Source: Candidatus Aenigmatarchaeota archaeon (GTDB lineage: Archaea > Aenigmatarchaeota > Aenigmatarchaeia > Aenigmatarchaeales > JACQIB01). From it: a stretch of DNA of 18,793 nucleotides. A program made the translations under genes and the position numbers. The notes under the pieces were generated by a model. The model was not told the DNA's origin. It ran no database searches and was given only the letters and a program-made list of their open reading frames with translations. The stretch covers positions 1-18,793 of the forward strand of contig JBHIDR010000016.1 of assembly GCA_046760225.1 (NCBI GenBank). Direction: 5' to 3'. This document shows, in pieces, positions 1,648-11,784 of the stretch (the stretch's first letter is position 1; each line of letters begins with the position of its first letter).

Positions 1648-1950
1648 ATGAGCGATGACAGCGACCCTGTTTCAAAGATACAGGCTCTTGAAGGTGAAAT
1701 AAAGGAAAAAACAAGGGACTACCCAGCGAAAGAAAAGAACACGTACGCTGGGGTCTGCAACGCGCTGTTTATGGCAAGAAACTCCTATGTAACCGAACAC
1801 TTCAACAAGAACGTCATGCTTGGCTGCCTTAACATTGCCAAGAAGACAGTAAAGAAAATGTCAAATGGTTATTTTGAATACCAGAAGTTTCACAATTATG
1901 TTCTTGAGGAAATCGAAGGAATAGAAAAGACTGTTGCAGCTTCTTCATGA
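1648..1950 (+). CDS. Hypothetical protein (100 aa, probably helical)
   Basis: ATG-started ORF filling the gap between the pncB promoter and the tRNA-Gly 3' end. No motif recognised. Confidence 0.6.
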   Translation: MSDDSDPVSKIQALEGEIKEKTRDYPAKEKNTYAGVCNALFMARNSYVTEHFNKNVMLGCLNIAKKTVKKMSNGYFEYQKFHNYVLEEIEGIEKTVAASS

Positions 1951-1953
1951 AAC

Positions 1954-2071
1954 TGGTGCGCCGACTGGGATTCGAACCCAGGTTATCAGCTTGCTTCAGC
2001 AAGCTTGGAAGGCATCCCCATGGCTTCTGTTCTGGAAGTCATTTGAGGTCCTACCACTAGACTATCGGCGC
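1954..2071 (-). tRNA. tRNA-Gly(TCC) with two introns (29/30 and 37/38)
   Basis: Mature: GCGCCGA TA GTCT AGTGGTA GGAC C TCAGC CTTCCAA GCTGA TAAC CTGGG TTCGAAT CCCAG TCGGCGC A CCA (74 nt). Introns: 2014-2043 (30 nt, 29/30) and a 14-nt 37/38 intron AGCTTGCTGAAGCA (1992-2005; central helix CTTC/GAAG). Confidence 0.9.
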
Positions 2072-2924
2072 AAATGTCGAACAACATTATTAATTTGCTT
2101 ATTTCTTCCTTTCTAAATATATTTATACTCCATGAATTCATTGTTCTATCTTTATAGATTTTAGCTTTAATATTTATGGAATTTAACATCAGTAAAATAT
2201 CTTCGAGAATCTCTTTTGTACTTTGTTTAATTGCAAATGTCATCCTTCCATCTTTTCTTATGCTTAAAGATCCATCACTGTTAAAAAATCCAAAAATAAA
2301 CGCAACTTTATTTTCTTTTCCAGATTCTAATACAAATTTTGGTACTCTTATTTTATCCTTTTTTTTACCTAAAGGAATATCAAAGATGTTATGAAGAAAT
2401 TCCTTTAACGGCGCAGAGGTGGTTCTAAGTAAGTAATAATTATCGGTCTGTTTAATGCTGCAATTAATACCGAAGATATTCTTTAGTATAAGCTCGGCTT
2501 TCTTTACTTCTAAATGGGATGAAGAGATAAGCAAGCTACCTTTCCTAGAAGTTATACAGCCATCTCCTAAGATTAAGCCCAATAAATAACTCAAAGATGG
2601 GGTTAATTTTTTGGGCAAAATGATAGGCTTACTACTCCTTGAAGAAAACATTATGTTTTTTTCGCATATCTTATCTAAAAAAGAAAGGTCATTAACTTGA
2701 TTACAAATGTAACAAAACCTTTTTATAGAAATTGGTGTATCTTCCCTCCACTTGTATATTAATGATTCATGAATATTCAGCTCTTTGGCTAAATTATTAA
2801 AAGTCTTTTTTGTCTTTATTTTTAAAAGTATATCGCTTACTATTTTATTAATGCCATGAACGTATATTTCTGAGTCAGAGTTTCTTATTTGTATTAAATA
2901 ATTTTTTAACATGTTATCAGCCAA
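1986..2924 (-). CDS. HTH plus double-motif LAGLIDADG endonuclease-like protein overlapping tRNA-Gly
   Basis: Motifs LSYLLGLILGDGCI and AFIFGFFNSDGSL, N-terminal HTH-like LAKELNIHESLIYKW, visibly AT-rich relative to flanks. Start may be ATG at 2912. The stop codon lies within the tRNA-Gly anticodon stem. Confidence 0.85.
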   Translation of the reverse strand: MADNMLKNYLIQIRNSDSEIYVHGINKIVSDILLKIKTKKTFNNLAKELNIHESLIYKWREDTPISIKRFCYICNQVNDLSFLDKICEKNIMFSSRSSKPIILPKKLTPSLSYLLGLILGDGCITSRKGSLLISSSHLEVKKAELILKNIFGINCSIKQTDNYYLLRTTSAPLKEFLHNIFDIPLGKKKDKIRVPKFVLESGKENKVAFIFGFFNSDGSLSIRKDGRMTFAIKQSTKEILEDILLMLNSINIKAKIYKDRTMNSWSINIFRKEEISKLIMLFDICADSLVVGPQMTSRTEAMGMPSKLAEAS

Positions 2925-2934
2925 CTACACCCGC

Positions 2935-3342
2935 TCAAATGAGAAGGGCGTTCTTTATCCTGTCCTTGATGCTGTCCATCTGCTCCTTGGGTATTTCCTT
3001 CATAGCACCAAAGTTTATTGCATTGCCGTGCCCATCATCAGGGAACCTTGGAAGCAGGTGTATATGGGCATGCGGCATTGCCTCCCCTATTATGTAGGAG
3101 ACAATCCATTCTGTGTCCATTGCCTTTTTCAATGCATTTGCAATCCTGTCTACGACCTTAAAGTACTCCCCTGGTTTCGGTACATCCCATACCCATCTGT
3201 AGTGCTTCTTTGGAATCACAACTACATGTCCGCCGTTCAATGGCCTTATGTCTAGGAATGCCAGGAACTCTGCATCATCGTATACCCTGTAAGCTGGCAT
3301 TTCCTTTTTCACTATCTTGCAAAACACACATTCTCCGTCCAT
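2935..3342 (-). CDS. HIT family hydrolase
   Basis: CVFCKI N-terminus, FLDIRP, GHVVVIPK and HAHIHLLPR histidine triad. Start reassigned to ATG 3342 (GGTGA SD at 3347-3351); the longer ORF runs into tRNA-Trp. Confidence 0.92.
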   Translation of the reverse strand: MDGECVFCKIVKKEMPAYRVYDDAEFLAFLDIRPLNGGHVVVIPKKHYRWVWDVPKPGEYFKVVDRIANALKKAMDTEWIVSYIIGEAMPHAHIHLLPRFPDDGHGNAINFGAMKEIPKEQMDSIKDRIKNALLI

Positions 3343-3356
3343 TTTATCACCATGAA

Positions 3357-3584
3357 TGGTGGGGCCAGAGAGATTCGAACTCCCCTCTGCGGGTATCACC
3401 CTGCGAAAACGCAAATACCCGCGTTTTCTTTCACAGCAGACAAAACGAAGTTGCTTTGCAACTTCAATTCGTCGCTCAACGCTCCACCATAAGTCTGGAG
3501 CCCGCCTTCAGGAAATACAAGAGAGCTTGTATTTTTATCCTACCTGGCTAGACTATGGTTCTGGCCTGAACAAATCAGGTCCCC
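3357..3584 (-). tRNA. tRNA-Trp(CCA) with three introns (4/5, 25/26, 37/38)
   Basis: Mature: GGGGCCA TA GTCT AGCCAGGTA GGAT G GCGGG CTCCAGA CCCGC AGAG GGGAG TTCGAAT CTCTC TGGCCCC A CCA (76 nt). Introns: 3559-3580 (22 nt), 3507-3536 (30 nt), 3395-3494 (100 nt). Anticodon at 3496-3498. Confidence 0.88.
3395..3494 (-). ncRNA. tRNA-Trp 37/38 intron, putative box C/D-type guide for Cm34
   Basis: Guide TGGAGC (3481-3486) is antisense to G31-A36. D'-like TTGA (3476-3479) places C34 at the N-5 position, followed by a hairpin and C'-like GTGAAAG (3428-3434) forming a K-turn. Euryarchaeal tRNA-Trp introns are known C/D guides. Confidence 0.6.
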
Positions 3585-3635
3585 ATCATTGCTGACCCCA
3601 CATGTTCTTATGATAAGAAGTGTGGACAATTGTTT

Positions 3636-4244
3636 TTAAGCCTTTGCCAATGCAAAGGAAAACTTGAATTTCTTGGCTGTTCCTATGACATCAAGGCCAC
3701 AGGCCTTCATCAGCCTTCTAAGCTCGTCTGGTGTCATTGGCTTCTCATAGCCGAAATTCCATTTCCCTCTTTTTTCCTGGAACCTTCTCCACAGCCTGTA
3801 GTACCATGTTGTGCAGGGAACAGAAATAAGAACATAGCCTCCTTGCCTTACAAACCTCTTGTGGATGTTGACCAGCTCCTTCTGCCTCTTTCCCTTGAAA
3901 TGCTCTATCAGGCCTTCGCTGTGCACAAGGTCGTACTTTTCCTTTGACCTGTACTTGAATACATCTGATATGACTGCCTTCACAGGAAGGCCGTGCATCC
4001 TGAAGCTTTGTTTTGCGATTTCCAGGGCATTTCTGCTGTAATCTATCAGGGTTGCCTTTCCTCCATACCTCTTTATCATCCTAGCGCTTATCTGGCCTGT
4101 TCCACAGCCCAATTCAAGTATTATCGGCTTCTTTATCCTGTTATCAAGGAGGTTCTTGTATGCATCAAATGTGACCTTGTTATACAGCCTTGTTGGTAAA
4201 GAACCAAGACTGATGCCTGACCAGTATTCATCCCATTCTGCCAC
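3636..4244 (-). CDS. Class I SAM-dependent methyltransferase
   Basis: ILELGCGTG motif I, LIDYS, YDLVHSEGLIEHF, GGYVLI. GTG start with a GGTGA SD. Confidence 0.88.
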   Translation of the reverse strand: MAEWDEYWSGISLGSLPTRLYNKVTFDAYKNLLDNRIKKPIILELGCGTGQISARMIKRYGGKATLIDYSRNALEIAKQSFRMHGLPVKAVISDVFKYRSKEKYDLVHSEGLIEHFKGKRQKELVNIHKRFVRQGGYVLISVPCTTWYYRLWRRFQEKRGKWNFGYEKPMTPDELRRLMKACGLDVIGTAKKFKFSFALAKA

Positions 4245-4259
4245 TATATCACCATTAAA

Positions 4260-4357
4260 TGGAGCCCCGGGAGGGATTCGAACCCCCGACTTGCCGCTAA
4301 CCCCCGCCCTAACGGGCGCTACAAGGCGGCCGCTCTACCGGGCTGAGCCACCGAGGC
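4260..4357 (-). tRNA. tRNA-Thr(TGT) with a canonical 37/38 intron
   Basis: GCCTCGG/CCGGGGC acceptor, T discriminator, encoded CCA, GCCGC/GCGGC anticodon stem. 21-nt intron at 4299-4319 with a CGCCC/GGGCG hairpin; mature length 77 nt. Confidence 0.93.
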
Positions 4358-4396
4358 ATGAAAATTATTAATAGTTGCATACTTTAAATATCTGAC

Positions 4397-4735
4397 ATGC
4401 TGGGGGTAATACTCGCCATAATATCCGGGATAATGGCAGGCATGGCATACTTCATACAGAAGCAGGGAGTTGACTCCATAGACAGCTGGAAAAGGCTGGT
4501 GAAATCCAAGGTATGGCTGTTAGGGGCAATTATTCTTCCAATAGCGTTCCTCATACACATGGCTGCGCTGAGGTTCGAGAGGCTTGTCATAGTTGAACCG
4601 CTCATAAACACAGCAATAATAACCATAGTCATCCTTGAGTTCCTTGTCCTGAAGGAAAGACCTTCCAGAACAGAGATATTTGCAATAATCGTGTTTTTCA
4701 TGGGAATAGCATTGCTGCAGGTGGGTAGCTTATGA
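4397..4735 (+). CDS. Small 4-TM DMT/EamA-like membrane protein
   Basis: 112 aa hydrophobic, with VEPLINT and FLVLKER EamA-like motifs. Confidence 0.75.
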   Translation: MLGVILAIISGIMAGMAYFIQKQGVDSIDSWKRLVKSKVWLLGAIILPIAFLIHMAALRFERLVIVEPLINTAIITIVILEFLVLKERPSRTEIFAIIVFFMGIALLQVGSL

Positions 4736-5067
4736 AGCATATCCTGATTGCACTAATATCGGGCTGCATGTTCGGGGCAGCCATGGTGCTGACAAAGCTC
4801 TGGCTGTCACCACTGCCAGTAGAGAGCATACTGCTTGCACCTGAGCTGTATTTGATATTTGCCATAGGCATTGCAGGGTTCTTTCTGATGCAAGTGGCAT
4901 TCAAGGGAAGGAAGGCCAGCCAAATCACGCTTGTGATGACAGCTGCTGCAACAAGCCTGCCCATTGTATCAGGGCTGCTGATAGGAGAAATACTGACAAT
5001 GTACGAGACAATAGGTATAATGCTTCTCCTTACAGGAGCATTCACATTACTCTATAAAGGCATTTAA
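4732..5067 (+). CDS. Small 4-TM DMT/EamA-like membrane protein (paired subunit)
   Basis: 111 aa hydrophobic, GLLIGE motif; ATGA overlap with the previous gene. Confidence 0.75.
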   Translation: MKHILIALISGCMFGAAMVLTKLWLSPLPVESILLAPELYLIFAIGIAGFFLMQVAFKGRKASQITLVMTAAATSLPIVSGLLIGEILTMYETIGIMLLLTGAFTLLYKGI

Positions 5068-5089
5068 ATTGAGTGCCTGAATAATAATT

Positions 5090-6193
5090 ATGCGAGTTGC
5101 AATATTTAGCGACACATACAAACCGCAGGTAAATGGTGTGGTGAACTGCATTGACACACTGGACAAGCATTACAGGAAAATGGGAATCAAGACAATGATA
5201 ATAGCGCCAACAGGCACAAAATACAAATTCACTTCATTGACTGTGCCCTTTTACAAGGAGTTCGAGTCAGCAATATTCCCTTATCCGAAGGCTGTAAAGA
5301 TCATCAAGAAGTTCAAGCCAGACATAATACATTCCCACACCCAGTTCAACATGGGGATAGCTGCACTTGCAGCCAGGAAAATTCTGAAGGTCCCAATGGT
5401 GACCACCTTCCACACCCTCATACCTGACTACTTCGGTCACTATTTCTTTGACAGCAAGACAGCAAAGAGGATACTTTGGAAGTACTTTACAAAATACTTC
5501 AAGCGCTGCGATGCTGTCACAACACCGAGCGACCTGATAAAGAAGGAGATAGAGAAGAGGTTCAACAGGAAGGTGCTTGTGATAAGGAACGGCGTGGACA
5601 CAAAGAGGTTCAATCCGAGGAAGAAGTCGAACATCTACAGGAAATACGGGATAAAGAAGAACTATAAGGTCGTGCTGCATGTTGGCAGGCTGAGCAAGGA
5701 AAGGAATATTGCTGACATGATAAGGGCATTCGATAATATCTCAAAGAAAAGGAATGATGCAAAATTCGTGATTGTGGGCCGCGGACCAAAGGAAGAAAAG
5801 TTCAGGGCAATGGCAAAGTACAACAAAAACATAATCTTTACAGGGTTTGTGCCGGACAGGTTATTGCCTGAGTTCTTTGCAAGCGCCTATGTGTTTGTGT
5901 CCCCTTCAAAGACAGATGTGTATCCGCTCATAATTCTTGAGGCATGCGCATCTGGCCTTCCCATGATAGGCACAAAAGTCGGGGGTGTGGGCCGCATCAT
6001 AAACAGCAGAATAGGGTTCAGGTACAGCAACCTCAAGGAAATGGAGAAGCAGTTAAACCATGTGCTTGACAACAAAAAGGCAAGGGACAGGCTTGCTACA
6101 AATGCCAGGAAGTTTGCTGAAGCAGAGTCATGGGATTCCAAGGCAAAGGAGTTCATTGGCCTGTACAAGAAGCTGATAAGGGATTCCAAATGA
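5090..6193 (+). CDS. GT4 glycosyltransferase (monoglucosyl-lipid synthase-like)
   Basis: MRVAIFSDTYKPQVNGV, PDIIHSHT, TFHT, NGVD, VGRLSKE, ILEACASGLP. Confidence 0.9.
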   Translation: MRVAIFSDTYKPQVNGVVNCIDTLDKHYRKMGIKTMIIAPTGTKYKFTSLTVPFYKEFESAIFPYPKAVKIIKKFKPDIIHSHTQFNMGIAALAARKILKVPMVTTFHTLIPDYFGHYFFDSKTAKRILWKYFTKYFKRCDAVTTPSDLIKKEIEKRFNRKVLVIRNGVDTKRFNPRKKSNIYRKYGIKKNYKVVLHVGRLSKERNIADMIRAFDNISKKRNDAKFVIVGRGPKEEKFRAMAKYNKNIIFTGFVPDRLLPEFFASAYVFVSPSKTDVYPLIILEACASGLPMIGTKVGGVGRIINSRIGFRYSNLKEMEKQLNHVLDNKKARDRLATNARKFAEAESWDSKAKEFIGLYKKLIRDSK

Positions 6194-7218
6194 TGGTAAA
6201 CATATTCAATGAGATGATCAGCAAGAGAACAGGAGGGCCCAGGACCTATTCCAAGACAATAATAAGGGAGCTCAAAAAGAAGAAGGCCAGGGTTGTCATA
6301 AACCAGATGTCAGACAGGGCAGACATAACCCATTTCAACTTCTACGGTCCAAAGGCGCTCCTGAAGATAAAGGCAACCTCAAAGCCAACAATAGGGAGCA
6401 CGCATTATACCAAGGAGGAGTTCTTTGAGACATTCAGGGGCGGAAAAATAACAAGCATGGCCATGTGGAGAATTGTTGAGCACATGTACAGGAGGATGGA
6501 TGCGCTGATATCGCCTTCCCATTACACTAAGTCATTGGTCAGGAAATACGGAATCAAGAAGCCAACAGCAGTCATAACAAACGGTATTGAGCCTGCAAAA
6601 TTCAGGTTTGACAAAAAAGGAAGGGAAAGGTTCAGAAAAGAGTTTGGCATAGGAGATGATGACAGGGTTGTTTATTCTGTTGGCTATTGCATACCAAGGA
6701 AAGGCATCCTGGCTATGCTACAGCTTGCAAGGAAGATGAAGGATTACAAGTTTGTCTGGGTCGGGGGTTTCTTCAAGGGCAGCAAGGACAAAGCAAAAAT
6801 CCAGAGACTGATAAGGAATGCGCCTCCGAACTTCATTCATACAGGCTTTGTGAAAAGAATAAGAGATGCTCATTCAGCCGGGGACATCTTCCTGTTTCCC
6901 AGTTATGAGGAAAACCAGGGGATTGTGATCCTGGAGGCTGCTGCAACAGGCAACCCTGTAATACTAAGGGACATCCCTGTGTATGATGGCTGGTTGAAGA
7001 CAAATTATAATTGCATCAAGTGCAGCAACATGAAGCAGTTCATGGGAGCAATAGAAAGAATATCGAACAAGGGTACGAGAAGAAAGCTTGTTTCCAATGG
7101 AAAGAGGCTTGCAAAGGAGCATGACATAAGCAAGAACATAAAATACCTCAAAAAGGCGTATATGCTCACAGTCAACAGGGAGTTTGATGAGCTAGAGGAC
7201 CTGTCCAGCTACAGCTAG
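6190..7218 (+). CDS. GT4 glycosyltransferase (diglucosyl-lipid synthase-like)
   Basis: PRKG and FLFPSYEENQGIVILEAAA..PVILRDIPVY. Start reassigned to ATG 6190, which gives an ATGA overlap with the previous gene. Confidence 0.88.
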   Translation: MMVNIFNEMISKRTGGPRTYSKTIIRELKKKKARVVINQMSDRADITHFNFYGPKALLKIKATSKPTIGSTHYTKEEFFETFRGGKITSMAMWRIVEHMYRRMDALISPSHYTKSLVRKYGIKKPTAVITNGIEPAKFRFDKKGRERFRKEFGIGDDDRVVYSVGYCIPRKGILAMLQLARKMKDYKFVWVGGFFKGSKDKAKIQRLIRNAPPNFIHTGFVKRIRDAHSAGDIFLFPSYEENQGIVILEAAATGNPVILRDIPVYDGWLKTNYNCIKCSNMKQFMGAIERISNKGTRRKLVSNGKRLAKEHDISKNIKYLKKAYMLTVNREFDELEDLSSYS

Positions 7219-7970
7219 AGATTTATTTCTATACCAATAGGGCAATGGTCAGAGCCAAGAACATCAGAAAGTATGAAGGCCTTTTTCACTCTCTTGATGA
7301 TGTTTTTTGGTACGAAAATATAATCGATTCGCCATCCAAGGTTCCGCTTGCGGGCATCCCTGTAATAAGGCCACCATGTGTAGTTTCCTGGCTCCTTGTT
7401 AAAGTGCCTGAAGGTGTCAATGAATTTCTTGGACAATATCTTGTCAATCTGCTTCCTCTCTTCAGGCAGGAACATTATGTTATTTTTATTCTCTTTGGGC
7501 CTTGCCAGGTCTATTTCCTTGTGCGCGATATTGAAGTCACCACACAGAACGACATTTTTCTTGAGCTTGTTAAGGTAACTGAAAAAAGCCGTGTACATGT
7601 CCAGTTTATATGGGAGCTTTGCCTTGTCCCTTCTTCCATGAGGGAAGTATAGGTTGAGCAAAGTAAACTTAGGGTATTTCACAACCAAAACACGGCCCTC
7701 TTTGTCAAACCTCTTTATTCCAAGACCATGCTTCACCTCAAGGGGCTTTTCTTTAGAAAGAAGAGCCACGCCACTGTATCCTTTTCTTTCAGCAGGATTC
7801 CAAAAAGAGAAGTAGCCTTTCATATTCTTTAGTTCATCAGACACCTTGTCTGTCTGAGCCTTTGTCTCTTGTATACACAGGATGTCTGGCTTGTCCTTCT
7901 TCAGCCAGTTCAAGAACCCCTTTCTATGAACCGAACGTATTCCATTGACATTCCAAGATAGTATGCGCAT
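7215..7970 (-). CDS. xth: Exodeoxyribonuclease III / AP endonuclease
   Basis: SWNVNG, IQETK, GYSGV, GDFNIAH, WRIDY, GSDHCP. Confidence 0.96.
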   Translation of the reverse strand: MRILSWNVNGIRSVHRKGFLNWLKKDKPDILCIQETKAQTDKVSDELKNMKGYFSFWNPAERKGYSGVALLSKEKPLEVKHGLGIKRFDKEGRVLVVKYPKFTLLNLYFPHGRRDKAKLPYKLDMYTAFFSYLNKLKKNVVLCGDFNIAHKEIDLARPKENKNNIMFLPEERKQIDKILSKKFIDTFRHFNKEPGNYTWWPYYRDARKRNLGWRIDYIFVPKNIIKRVKKAFILSDVLGSDHCPIGIEINL

Positions 7971-7981
7971 AGTATAACCTA

Positions 7982-8173
7982 TGGTGTCAGGGGCGGGCTT
8001 CGAACCCGCGACTTCTGGCCCTCGTTTTAGAGAGTCTCCAGATCTCTCAGCCTTAAGTCATACCAGCTTAGCTGGTCATAACTCATACGCATATGAGTTT
8101 CGCCGGAGGCTCTGGCGCTCTACCAGGTTTCCCGCCATCAGGCCTCAGCCTAAAGGCTCTGAGCCACCCTGAC
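7982..8173 (-). tRNA. Elongator tRNA-Met(CAT) with four introns (15/16, 30/31, 37/38, 45/46)
   Basis: Mature: GTCAGGG TG GCTC AGCCTGGTA GAGC G CCAGA CTCATAA TCTGG AGGTC GCGGG TTCGAAG CCCGC CCCTGAC A CCA (77 nt). Introns: 8128-8158 (31 nt), 8099-8111 (13 nt; CGCC/GGCG), 8044-8091 (48 nt; CTCA/TGAG), 8013-8035 (23 nt; CTGG/CCAG). G1-C72 argues against initiator; Ile2 is not fully excluded. Confidence 0.88.
8044..8091 (-). ncRNA. tRNA-Met 37/38 intron, putative K-turn/box C'D' guide for Cm34
   Basis: Guide TATGAGT (8081-8087), D'-like ATGA (8076-8079), stem CCAGC/GCTGG, 3-nt bulge, C'-like ATGACTT (8055-8061), CTGA at 8047-8050. The N-5 base pairs with C34. Confidence 0.6.
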
Positions 8174-8237
8174 GTTGTTAATAATACGGAAAAAGAACTT
8201 ATAAAAATCATACCTTCTGCCCAGAACTCAAAACTCC

Positions 8238-9077
8238 TTATAAACCCTTATCTAATATGGCCATGTCTTCCTGTTCCAATCTCCAACCCAGTACCCCCAA
8301 GTTTTCTTTAATATGTTCAACATTTGCTGCCTTTACTATGGTAACCACATTCTTTTTAGAAATCAGCCAGTTCAAAGCGATTTGGGCCCGTGTTTTATTG
8401 TATTTTTTCGCCATCCTATCAAGAGTATCAAATCCTGGCTTTGCAAGCAGGCCCAGTGCCAGAGGTCTCCATGCAACAATAAAAATATCATTTTCTTGAC
8501 AATAAGGAATTATCTCAGATTCCATGTTCCTGGTAAATCTTCCCCTATTCCTGACTGATAAATTGTATTCTATCTGGTTAGCAACAATCTTATTTTTGGT
8601 GCACTTTTGTGCCTCTTTTAATTCCTCAACAGAGAAATTGCTTACACCAATATTCTTAACTAATTTTTTATGCATCAAGAAGTCCATTGCTTTCATGGTC
8701 TCTTCAATCGGGATATCTGGATTTGGTCCGTGTATAAGATAAAGATCCATATAATTGGTATTCAGTCTTTTCAAACTCCTTTTTGCCGCGGCAATAACGT
8801 CATCGTACTTTAGATTGATACTTGAAACTTTTGATGTGATGAAGATTTTGCTTCTATCAAACCCCTTTATCGCTTCTCTGACCAATTCTTCAGTGTGCCC
8901 AGCACCATAAATCTCAGCGGTGTCTATGTGAATCATGCCAAGCTCAATAGCTGTTTTTATTGCTGTAATATCTTCTTTGTCATGGGTGGTATCCTTTTCT
9001 CTATTTCCACCCATGCCCCAGGTACCAATGCCAAGCACAGGTAATTTAAAACCGCCTGTGAGTGTTTTGAATTCCAT
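8238..9077 (-). CDS. Aldo/keto reductase
   Basis: LGIGTWGMGG, HIDTAEIYG, DLYLIHGP, IGVSNFS, NQIEY. Start reassigned to ATG 9077; the longer ORF overlaps tRNA-Lys. Confidence 0.93.
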   Translation of the reverse strand: MEFKTLTGGFKLPVLGIGTWGMGGNREKDTTHDKEDITAIKTAIELGMIHIDTAEIYGAGHTEELVREAIKGFDRSKIFITSKVSSINLKYDDVIAAAKRSLKRLNTNYMDLYLIHGPNPDIPIEETMKAMDFLMHKKLVKNIGVSNFSVEELKEAQKCTKNKIVANQIEYNLSVRNRGRFTRNMESEIIPYCQENDIFIVAWRPLALGLLAKPGFDTLDRMAKKYNKTRAQIALNWLISKKNVVTIVKAANVEHIKENLGVLGWRLEQEDMAILDKGL

Positions 9078-9085
9078 AATAATAA

Positions 9086-9281
9086 TGGTGGGCCCAATGG
9101 GATTCGAACCCACGACCCTTCCCGGACAGCTTTGCTGTCTCTCGGTGTCTCCACTCACAGAACCTTACGGTTCTCGTAAAGCTCCTAGAGGTTAAGAGCT
9201 TCACCACCACTTCTGGTTCGAGTGCTCTACCAGATTGCCCGAACCTTTGAATTTTCCAAGGGCTCTCTGAGCTATGGGCCC
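9086..9281 (-). tRNA. tRNA-Lys(CTT) with four introns (15/16, 30/31, 37/38, 43/44)
   Basis: Mature: GGGCCCA TA GCTC AGTCTGGTA GAGC A CTCGG CTCTTAA CCGAG GGGTC GTGGG TTCGAAT CCCAT TGGGCCC A CCA (77 nt). Introns: 9235-9266 (32 nt; GCTC/GGGC), 9200-9218 (19 nt; CACT/GGTG), 9147-9192 (46 nt; CTCT/GGAG), 9119-9140 (22 nt). Confidence 0.88.
9147..9192 (-). ncRNA. tRNA-Lys 37/38 intron, putative K-turn/box C'D' guide for Cm32
   Basis: Guide TAGGAGC (9181-9187) is antisense to G31-A37, then TTT, D'-like ACGA (9174-9177), stem GAACC-GTAA-GGTTC, bulge TGT and GAGT. The N-5 base pairs with C32. Confidence 0.5.
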
Positions 9282-9340
9282 ATAGAATAACATAATACGG
9301 TATAGTTATTAAAATTTATCTCTTTGGGTTTGAGAAGAAG

Positions 9341-9529
9341 TTACCTCTTCCTGCTGTGCTTGCCCAGGGTCTGCTTCCACTGCCAGTTGAACTTCCTTAT
9401 CCTTGAGTCAGGATAGCCGCACTTTGCGCAGCGCTTCTTCCTTATATGAAAACTATGGTTACCGCAGCGCCTGCATCTTATGTGCGAGACTTTATTGCGC
9501 TTACCAAAAGACGGTGTTCCTTTTGACAT
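9341..9529 (-). CDS. rpl37e: 50S ribosomal protein L37e
   Basis: [23 protein letters not shown]....CAKCGYP zinc ribbon. Confidence 0.97.
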
Positions 9530-10393: not shown

Positions 10394-10622
10394 GAAACGA
10401 AATACAAAGGGTTTTATTAAAGTAAGAAAATGCGTTAATAAAGAAGGTAAAGAATATTTTCTTTTCTATTATTGTCTGAACAGAAGAAACAAAAAGACAG
10501 GCATGGTTGAAAGAGTATTTGAGCATTTCTTAGGTAAAGAGATACCTTCAAAATTTATGCCTTTATTTGGGAGGTATAGAGGCAAATATAAAAATAGAGT
10601 AAAGGTGAGATTGAATGAGTAA
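10392..10622 (+). CDS. Small basic hypothetical protein, possibly DNA-binding
   Basis: Lys/Arg/aromatic-rich (GKEYFLFYY...HFLGK). GGTGA precedes ATG 10392; overlaps the next gene by 8 nt. Confidence 0.6.
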   Translation: MKRNTKGFIKVRKCVNKEGKEYFLFYYCLNRRNKKTGMVERVFEHFLGKEIPSKFMPLFGRYRGKYKNRVKVRLNE

Positions 10623-11784
10623 AGTAAGCATTCCCCAAAGTATCACAAATTTAAGTAGGTCTCGGTACTCTGTAAATGTAGATTTCTTTAAAAAATGGAG
10701 TTCAAAGATGGCATATATTTTAGGCTTTACTTGTGCTGATGGAACTATTTGGAAATATATATTGAGCTGGGATCTTAAGAGCGATAAAGAATTACTTATA
10801 AAAATTAAAGAAGCCATGGGATCAACTCACCCAATCAAAAGGGGAAAGGCTTCATTCAGGTTAAGAATTTACAATAAAAATATAATCAGTGATTTAAGGC
10901 AGTTGGGGATTACTCCTAATAAAAGTAAAACTACTAAATTTCCTAAAGTTCCAGATAAATTCTTAAAACACTTTATTAGGGGCGTTTTAGATGGTGATGG
11001 TTGGATTTCTATCCACCATAAAAAGAAGGGTTCAAAAGAAATTTCAGTAGGGTTCTCAAGCGGTAGTTATGACTTTTTAGAAACATTAATAAAAATGCTG
11101 AATAAGCAAATTTTACTAACATCCAACAATCTTAGAAAGAAAACTAAAAAAACTAAAAATGGTCTTTCTACATATTATAATCTAGAGTGGTATTCGAAAA
11201 ACGCGTTTAACATTATTTCATACCTATTTAATAATTTGAAAAAAGATGATTTGTCTCTTAAAAGAAAATATAACAAACAACTAAAAGCGAAAGCAATTTA
11301 CAAAGAATATAGTTGTAAAACAAAGCTTTGGAGGAAAATAGAGAAAAGGCATAATACTAGTATCAAAATAATTTTCAATAATTTACTTATTAAAAATAAG
11401 TTATCATGTATCCAAATTGGTGAAAAGTTAGATGTGCATCCATCTACTATATACAGATGGCTAGAAAAAACAGGAGTAAGAGCATCAACCAAAAGGGTAC
11501 CTAAAAAGACTATATTTATAAAATGTCCTGTATGTGGCGAACAGTTTAGAAAATACACTGCTTCTACGAAATCAAAGGCAAAGCGAACTGGAAAATTTAT
11601 AAGATGTACTATTTGTAGAAAGGATATCTATAGGCCACGATGGTGGTTTAAGGTAAATATCCGTCCACTTTACTCTCGGAAATGTCAAGGAAAGTGGCAG
11701 AAAACACGTCTAGAAGCAAACTTACTGCAGCGCTGTCAGACAAGCGGTCGTTTTTTACATTCCATTCAAGGTAATGAAAAATGA
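10615..11784 (+). CDS. Double-motif LAGLIDADG endonuclease-like protein with C-terminal HTH and Cys pairs
   Basis: MAYILGFTCADGTI and HFIRGVLDGDGWI; HTH-like IGEKLDVHPSTIYRWL; CPVC and CTIC; AT-rich. Confidence 0.88.
   Translation: MSKVSIPQSITNLSRSRYSVNVDFFKKWSSKMAYILGFTCADGTIWKYILSWDLKSDKELLIKIKEAMGSTHPIKRGKASFRLRIYNKNIISDLRQLGITPNKSKTTKFPKVPDKFLKHFIRGVLDGDGWISIHHKKKGSKEISVGFSSGSYDFLETLIKMLNKQILLTSNNLRKKTKKTKNGLSTYYNLEWYSKNAFNIISYLFNNLKKDDLSLKRKYNKQLKAKAIYKEYSCKTKLWRKIEKRHNTSIKIIFNNLLIKNKLSCIQIGEKLDVHPSTIYRWLEKTGVRASTKRVPKKTIFIKCPVCGEQFRKYTASTKSKAKRTGKFIRCTICRKDIYRPRWWFKVNIRPLYSRKCQGKWQKTRLEANLLQRCQTSGRFLHSIQGNEK

Follow-up and report, generated by a model that had tools for sequence, protein, structure and literature searches.

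How can a tRNA gene that is broken up at as many as four places still give rise to a tRNA, and are such genes in use at all? The question is raised by contig C16 of the draft genome G000 (851 kb, 83 contigs, 83% complete), which derives from hydrothermal-vent metagenomes and represents a small-genome, uncultured, DPANN-like vent archaeon; the genomes of its relatives span 0.3-2 Mb, most of them being smaller than 1 Mb. A search with the NAPRTase gene of contig C16 gave distant matches only, the best archaeal ones being from two Woesearchaeota metagenome-assembled genomes at 44-49% identity. This contig is the window analysed here, that is, the whole stretch of 18,793 nt, and it carries on its minus strand five tRNA genes, for Gly-UCC, Trp-CCA, Thr-UGU, an elongator-like Met-CAU and Lys-CUU, which are interrupted by 2, 3, 1, 4 and 4 introns, respectively (14 introns in five genes, or 2.8 per gene). 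Judged from their sequences, these are very probably five functional archaeal tRNA genes, the transcripts of which would carry 14 protein-spliced introns of the bulge-helix-bulge (BHB) type. The genes are as follows:

1954..2071, minus strand: tRNA-Gly(UCC), 118 nt, two introns; Rfam tRNA model 47.2 bits with a 55-nt insert
3357..3584, minus strand: tRNA-Trp(CCA), 228 nt, three introns; not found by Rfam or by either ARAGORN mode
4260..4357, minus strand: tRNA-Thr(UGU), 98 nt, one intron; Rfam tRNA model 53 bits
7982..8173, minus strand: tRNA-Met(CAU), elongator-like (G1-C72), 192 nt, four introns; not found by Rfam
9086..9281, minus strand: tRNA-Lys(CUU), 196 nt, four introns; Rfam gives an 18-nt T-arm match only

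A whole-genome scan for the combination of T-arm, acceptor stem and CCA places exactly these five 3' ends on the contig, and the CCA is encoded in all five genes; Rfam searches up to an E value of 10 added neither a tRNA beyond these nor a C/D family to the window. Once the introns are removed the genes yield canonical cloverleaves of 74 (Gly), 76 (Trp) and 77 nt (Thr, Met and Lys), and when ARAGORN is run on these spliced products with its intron search off, each of the five receives the expected identity: Gly(tcc), Trp(cca), Thr(tgt), Met(cat) or Lys(ctt). The exons of every gene are collinear within 98-228 nt, and split or permuted tRNA genes were rejected on these grounds. Applied to the interrupted genes, Rfam at its gathering score reports two of the five (Gly and Thr), and extending the search to E 10 adds only the T-arm fragment of Lys. 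ARAGORN in its default mode reports a single gene (Thr, which it names Tyr) and, with introns allowed, four, among which Met is named Leu and Lys is named Ser while Trp is absent. The initial annotation of this DNA had all five genes interrupted, with 2, 3, 1, 4 and 4 introns that leave cloverleaves of 74-77 nt, and its intron positions agree one for one with those given here; its expectation that standard annotation would overlook the majority of the genes or give them wrong names is borne out as far as general tools are concerned.

Where exactly do the introns lie? Exon boundaries were set from the cloverleaf and from orthologs, collected by searching 40 related genomes with the five genes by BLAST (relatives are cited below by their G numbers; G001 belongs to the same genus as G000), and cuts that were equivalent on this basis were then refined by BHB geometry. 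Each BHB motif was scored in a gene freed of its other introns, by counting the pairs formed in the 4-bp central helix and by measuring the outer and inner helices, the cuts being set between the second and third bulge nucleotides. The coordinates run from the first to the last intron base in window numbering, read on the minus strand:

2043..2014, minus strand: Gly intron 1, 30 nt, at 29/30; BHB central 3/4, outer 3, inner 3, unique best placement
2005..1992, minus strand: Gly intron 2, 14 nt, at the canonical 37/38; BHB central 4/4, outer 5, inner 1
3580..3559, minus strand: Trp intron 1, 22 nt, in the acceptor stem at 4/5; BHB central 3/4, outer 3, inner 5
3536..3507, minus strand: Trp intron 2, 30 nt, at 25/26; BHB central 4/4, outer 0, inner 3 (HBh' type)
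3494..3395, minus strand: Trp intron 3, 100 nt, at the canonical 37/38; BHB central 3/4, outer 5, inner 2
4319..4299, minus strand: Thr intron, 21 nt, at the canonical 37/38; BHB central 3/4, outer 5, inner 5, unique best placement
8158..8128, minus strand: Met intron 1, 31 nt, in the D-loop at 15/16; BHB central 3/4, outer 1, inner 3, the weakest of the 14
8111..8099, minus strand: Met intron 2, 13 nt, at 30/31; BHB central 4/4, outer 3, inner 1
8091..8044, minus strand: Met intron 3, 48 nt, at the canonical 37/38; BHB central 4/4, outer 5, inner 2
8035..8013, minus strand: Met intron 4, 23 nt, in the variable region at 45/46; BHB central 4/4, outer 0, inner 5
9266..9235, minus strand: Lys intron 1, 32 nt, in the D-loop at 15/16; BHB central 4/4, outer 0, inner 5
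9218..9200, minus strand: Lys intron 2, 19 nt, at 30/31; strict hBHBh', central 4/4, outer 4, inner 4
9192..9147, minus strand: Lys intron 3, 46 nt, at the canonical 37/38; BHB central 4/4, outer 5, inner 0 (hBH type)
9140..9119, minus strand: Lys intron 4, 22 nt, at 43/44; BHB central 3/4, outer 0, inner 6

These boundaries were checked by gap-tolerant global alignment to the orthologs without a BHB term, which marks stretches that only the window gene possesses. Gly-UCC is intron-less in G001, G017, G010 and G035, and both Gly introns are window-only against four of four compact orthologs, the first at local positions 29-58 and the second at 65-78, which within a 5-nt repeat is the same as 67-80 (a 2-nt shift). 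A homologous copy of the first occurs in G016. The spliced Gly sequence is identical to that of G001 at 71/74 positions and to that of G017 at 72/74 (67/72 to 72/74 over the compact genes). The interrupted Trp gene has orthologs in G001, G030, G020, G016, G021 and G011; its introns 1 and 2 are exactly window-only against G030 and G011 (local 5-26 and 49-78), G020 has an intron at the site of the first and a homologue of the second, and the genes of G001 and G030 have one intron each, that of G001 being cut by a contig end. The outer helix of Trp intron 1 draws on the 5' leader.

Met intron 1 is window-only against all three orthologs, with a 1-nt offset in one case (local 16-46), intron 2 against G025 (exact given a 1-nt repeat; local 63-75) and G001 (2-3 nt off), and intron 4 exactly against G001 (local 139-161). 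The Met orthologs of G001 and G025 have one intron and that of G037 has three, including a 13-nt intron at the 30/31 site of intron 2. Lys-CUU is intron-less in G030, G040 and G029 and has one intron in G001 and in G006. Lys intron 1 is window-only against all five orthologs (one off by 1 nt; local 16-47), intron 2 exactly so against all five (local 64-82) and intron 4 exactly so against G006 (local 142-163); G003 has an intron of other hairpin sequence at the site of intron 4, and the 37/38 site of intron 3 is also interrupted in G001, G006, G002 and G003. The spliced Lys matches the intron-less gene of G030 at 72/77 positions (66/74 to 72/77 over the compact genes).

A BHB match alone was rejected as evidence, since a loose search gives dozens of candidates per locus (25 to 188 BHB-like pairs among the matches listed), and homology-fixed boundaries were used in its place; it is because the boundaries are fixed independently that the motif counts as evidence. 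In all 14 introns the central helix has at least 3/4 pairs, and one or both of the flanking helices reach 3 bp. For 13 of them the chosen placement is the sole one to reach its score among some 110 placements of the same length in the gene, shifts of -2 to +2 leave exactly one good BHB motif per intron, and shuffling of the intron letters (2000 trials each) reaches the observed score in between 0 and 9.2% of trials, the highest figure being that for Lys 37/38. The unique best placements show that the pattern of interruptions did not arise by chance.

How might such transcripts mature? Each gene would be transcribed as a single collinear precursor, the exon-intron junctions of which would fold into two 3-nt bulges with a 4-bp helix between them. 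The splicing endonuclease EndA, as a pair of catalytic-like and structural-like paralogs, would cut once in each bulge, and RtcB would join the exons. Removal is likely to be ordered in Gly, Met and Lys, because in these genes the anticodon stem, which is the outer helix of the 37/38 motif, is itself interrupted. In the primary transcript this helix has 2 (Gly), 1 (Met) and 1 (Lys) pairs, and removal of the 29/30 or 30/31 intron raises this to 5; the stem intron probably leaves before that at 37/38.

The machinery for this route is encoded in G000. PF01974 and PF02778 each match two EndA genes on contig C2, which are separated by an unrelated ORF and both of which have an N-terminal and a catalytic domain. 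The longer protein (C2:23825-24352, 176-202 aa) finds its best match in the catalytic subunit of Nanoarchaeum equitans (3IEY_A, 6.4e-35), keeps the Tyr and His residues and has between them, relative to Methanopyrus kandleri EndA, a nine-residue insertion that is common to the N. equitans alpha subunit. The shorter (C2:22790-23281, 163 aa) is without the catalytic His, as are 18 of 18 beta-like sequences of the order. The pair is conserved, with 30 alpha-like and 18 beta-like sequences classed (30 loci fetched); in family f3 most genomes gave a single EndA match. The G000 enzyme therefore resembles the (alpha-beta)2 type of Nanoarchaeum, with one catalytic-like and one structural-like paralog, and the classification of EndA that the initial annotation had proposed as a check points to a two-subunit enzyme, the kind linked to relaxed specificity. 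In the relevant passages of Kaneta et al. (2018; PMC5829648), a loop in DPANN EndAs is linked to greater tRNA gene disruption, and the insertion in the longer protein may be the "L3" loop of these authors.

RtcB is encoded on contig C35 (PF01139, 496.8 bits), and G000 also encodes fibrillarin. The rtcB gene, which lies outside the window, contains two BHB-shaped inserts of its own, one of 30 nt (C35:1544-1573; central 4/4, outer 2, inner 9) and one of 32 nt (C35:1646-1677; central 4/4, outer 1, inner 7). The second of these brings in stop codons and a frameshift, and removal of both restores the conserved stretches HEGYGFPIGG and GGIGYDINCG. It seems that RtcB, the ligase for BHB splicing, itself needs BHB splicing in order to be read.

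Several points weigh against the view that the five genes are functional and spliced as proposed. Excision, ligation and the mature tRNAs are all predicted from DNA, and no RNA run was found to contain window 1900-9400. Five introns have one flanking helix of length 0 (hBH or HBh' forms); as relaxed forms, these would fit a broad-specificity enzyme. The motif of Met 15/16 is weak (central 3/4, outer 1, inner 3) and has one tied placement, and against intron-less Lys genes the aligner joins introns 3 and 4 in one gap. The alpha-like EndA has Ala or Ser at the presumed third catalytic position in 30 of 30 sequences of the order: where solved EndAs have an RKK motif, with its Lys as the third catalytic residue, the aligned residues are R-A/S-N/S/Q/H in all of them. 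Finally, compact genes for Trp and Thr exist elsewhere in the genome, so that the interrupted Trp and Thr genes need not be the sole source of these tRNAs.

This last point leads to a very improbable alternative, namely that some of the loci, chiefly Trp and Thr, are redundant or decaying and that the working tRNAs come from compact genes with the same anticodon. The draft genome does hold a compact Trp-CCA (C2:28102-28175, Rfam 66.4 bits) and a compact Thr-UGU (C6:28345-28419, 72.4 bits), which have many sequence differences from the interrupted genes and are distinct genes rather than alleles of them, and the compact Thr has matches among the relatives. It is the interrupted Trp, however, that is the conserved copy, with orthologs in six relatives and across families, whereas a search of the 40 relatives gave no full-length match to the compact Trp; moreover, the exons of the window genes fold perfectly and their BHB motifs are all intact. 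Intron-less copies, which the initial annotation had named as potentially refuting its view, are found for Trp and Thr, but for Gly-UCC, Met and Lys-CUU no compact copy was seen in the tRNA scans of G000. Compact and interrupted genes share contigs (e.g., C2, C6 and C47; C2 has an interrupted tRNA gene of ~196 nt ending at 34289) and so belong to one organism. A binning mixture behind the duplicate Trp and Thr genes was considered and is not supported, given the shared contigs and an even G+C content of 0.41-0.45 across contigs.

Two further loci of G000, C4:24635-24830 and C12:3908-4020, are different tRNA genes that have an acceptor stem and a first intron (~22 nt, just after position 9) in common, which reflects either the duplication of a tRNA gene along with its intron or a copying of the intron. 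The gene at C4:24635, of ~196 nt, probably has several introns.

It is very unlikely, next, that the genes are real but that the count of introns or the exact cuts are partly wrong, be it at Met 30/31, at Met 15/16, at Lys 37/38 and 43/44 if these formed a unit, or by shifts of 1-2 nt. Short repeats blur the boundaries of Gly, Met 30/31, Trp and Lys (at 37/38 in Gly, Trp and Lys), which are fixed by BHB geometry only, and to these are added the tie at Met 15/16 and the merging of Lys introns 3 and 4 in alignments to intron-less orthologs. Yet every intron has one good BHB among five neighbouring shifts, and the doubtful introns are borne singly by orthologs, as with the 13-nt intron of G037 at Met 30/31. 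The Lys introns merge because the exon between them, at 6 nt, is too short for the aligner, and the merge is resolved by G006, which has the 37/38 intron only, together with G003, which has introns at both 37/38 and 43/44, the latter with a different hairpin. Moreover, the variable regions that result from the cuts match those of relatives: AGGTC for Met, shared with G001, and GGGTC for Lys, shared with G006.

An origin of the interruptions in faulty assembly or binning of a metagenome-assembled genome can virtually be dismissed, since, for all that the draft consists of 83 contigs, is 83% complete and holds two Trp-CCA and two Thr-UGU genes, the interrupted genes are covered by contigs of four DNA runs, several with zero differences (all from one vent study, of which run X1 may be the source of G000), relatives from other assemblies have introns at the same sites, and the G+C content is even.

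The reading of five functional, interrupted genes also gains from these population contigs. Those without differences span, for example, 8109-9400 (X2) and 8342-9285 and 7870-8340 (X4). A strain contig of X3 differs in the Met gene at 8020, 8022, 8031, 8032, 8065, 8070, 8073 and 8074 and by a 2-nt insertion at 8054, and all of the differences listed at or inside this gene fall within introns 3 and 4. The double change at 8031 and 8022 is a compensatory one, in which a single pair of the inner helix of Met intron 4 goes from T-A to C-G on the RNA strand. In a low-depth X2 contig, 53 nt of the Trp 37/38 intron are replaced by 20 other letters. Read at the level of sequence, the exons are held fixed while the introns drift under structural constraint.

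Two of the introns have a further feature. The 37/38 intron of Trp contains a complement of the anticodon loop, followed after 2 nt by a TTGA box, and that of Met contains a complement of nt 32-37, followed after 2 nt by an ATGA box. With this spacing C34 falls on the fifth position upstream of the NTGA box, as in box C/D guides. Guide and box spacing recur in seven of seven Met genes and, by exact search, in six of seven Trp genes; the seventh Trp gene, that of G001, was recognised by eye and involves a G-U pair (window 3395-3494 and 8044-8091; loci L003, L004, L005, L009, L013, L019-L023, L025 and L026). Many relatives have a GATGATA box slightly further on; in the window Trp intron no clear UGAUGA box and no match to a C/D family of Rfam was found. 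The intron of the Haloferax volcanii pre-tRNA-Trp reportedly carries a box C/D guide. Like it, the Trp and Met introns described here combine an anticodon-loop complement with a box, which makes them candidate guides by sequence alone; unlike in the H. volcanii guide, the boxes are degenerate (TTGA, ATGA or TCGA in place of CTGA).

Were the introns gained recently, or are they old? Compared with its congener G001, the window has two Gly introns against none, four Lys introns against one, four Met introns against one and in Trp at least the 25/26 intron in addition; over Gly, Lys and Met this makes a surplus of eight introns. Of the 14, only Met 15/16, Lys 15/16 and Lys 30/31 were seen in no ortholog examined. 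At least seven of the 14 positions, on the other hand, are interrupted in other families too, where the BHB ends are conserved and the hairpins have diverged with compensation (Gly 29/30 in G016; Trp 4/5 and 25/26 in G020; Met 30/31, 37/38 and 45/46 in G037; Lys 43/44 in G003). The massive gain proposed in the initial annotation finds partial support in the sparse introns of G001 and in the three introns seen in none of the orthologs, but such recurrence leaves it possible rather than established, as ancient introns with repeated loss fit equally well. The label of a hyper-fragmented tRNA set suits the five window genes but not the genome, in which ~26 tRNA loci are detectable and at least eight are compact.

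A bolder proposal, which we regard as tentative and rather less than probable, is that the genus is in a recent burst of BHB-intron gain, within a splicing system that is both self-referential and ordered. The recent burst is suggested by the three introns seen in no ortholog examined and by G001, whose Gly, Lys and Met genes together lack eight of the introns and whose Trp gene lacks that at 25/26; the order by the three 37/38 motifs that can form fully only after exit of the stem intron; and the self-reference by rtcB, which seems to need BHB splicing of two mini-introns. If true, the comparison of G000 with G001 would offer a dated, within-genus view of the arrival of archaeal tRNA introns. 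In the portion of an Asgard preprint that deals with it, the question of how tRNA introns arise is stated to be still open (10.64898/2026.10.13.758758).

Some observations on relatives and on neighbouring sequences touch on mobile DNA. Long T-loop introns built around A/T-rich palindromes occur in L016 (G016 Gly), L021 and L022 (G016 and G021 Trp), L023 (G011) and L004 and L005 (G006 and G002 Met). In G016 a near-identical hairpin of the type AAAGGTTTTCTTTC...GAAAACCTTTAGCAAAAGAAA is found both in the Gly T-loop intron and within the Trp 37/38 intron, which hints at a mobile insert. In the window, an ORF for a LAGLIDADG homing endonuclease (2090-2924, minus strand, G+C 0.31) lies between tRNA-Gly and a HIT gene, and a second LAGLIDADG-like ORF is present at 10615-11784. 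G001 has no LAGLIDADG ORF at the former spot, HIT adjoining tRNA-Gly there, and an X2 contig that joins 2072 to 2945 via 12 other letters represents an allele without it.

How does this arrangement compare with known systems? It is confirmed as a real, extreme case of a layout known in Thermoproteales, in ARMAN and other DPANN archaea and in Asgard archaea, and it calls for no new mechanism. As in ARMAN-2 and N. equitans, the host is of DPANN type and its introns are non-canonical and multiple. ARMAN-2 is said, in work by Fujishima of 2011, to combine disrupted tRNA genes with a relaxed EndA of the epsilon2 form. Unlike in ARMAN, EndA is here encoded by two separate subunit genes and is not a three-unit epsilon2 protein, and unlike in N. 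equitans the tRNA genes are collinear and not split. Literature searches turned up no account of DPANN tRNA genes with four introns. Incomplete DPANN tRNA sets are taken to point to hidden disrupted genes where Kaneta et al. (2018; PMC5829648) discuss them.

For archaeal tRNA genes, the passages of two papers that cite Sugahara et al. (2008) give a maximum of three introns, and for Thermoproteales 71 introns in 46 genes (PMC4033280, PMC8450103). Like these organisms (e.g., Pyrobaculum calidifontis), as far as those accounts describe them, the present archaeon has BHB introns at the canonical site as well as at many others, and a putatively heteromeric EndA of a kind with broad specificity; unlike them, with their maximum of three, it has two genes with four introns, it is DPANN-like, and its EndA is nearest to the Nanoarchaeum enzyme and not to the crenarchaeal one with a CSL loop. 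Asgard genomes are given as having introns in 92-95% of their tRNA genes in the relevant section of one paper (PMC11291895), and the parts concerned of the preprint mentioned above report up to five introns per gene and averages of 2.0-2.4 per gene in two families (10.64898/2026.10.13.758758). Most Asgard tRNA genes are, on these accounts, interrupted at BHB sites, more than half of them have multiple introns, and many D-arm introns are missed by annotators. Unlike the Asgard archaea, the present organism belongs to another superphylum, and its 2.8 introns per gene are a local figure in a mixed genome (at least eight of ~26 loci compact). Four introns per gene is more than the peer-reviewed maximum of three and does not exceed the five of the Asgard preprint.

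Collectively, these results place tRNA genes with four introns outside Thermoproteales and Asgard archaea, in a lineage of DPANN archaea that encodes a two-subunit endonuclease resembling that of Nanoarchaeum. General RNA finders see one or two of the five genes and misname others, and because such genes are overlooked or misnamed, genome reports for archaea of this kind will list as "missing" tRNAs that are actually present. With a same-genus genome that has far fewer introns and distant ones that have the same introns, there is now a set in which to ask whether they were gained, lost or exchanged. The organism itself would lean heavily on BHB splicing, to the extent that the gene for its own RNA ligase is interrupted.

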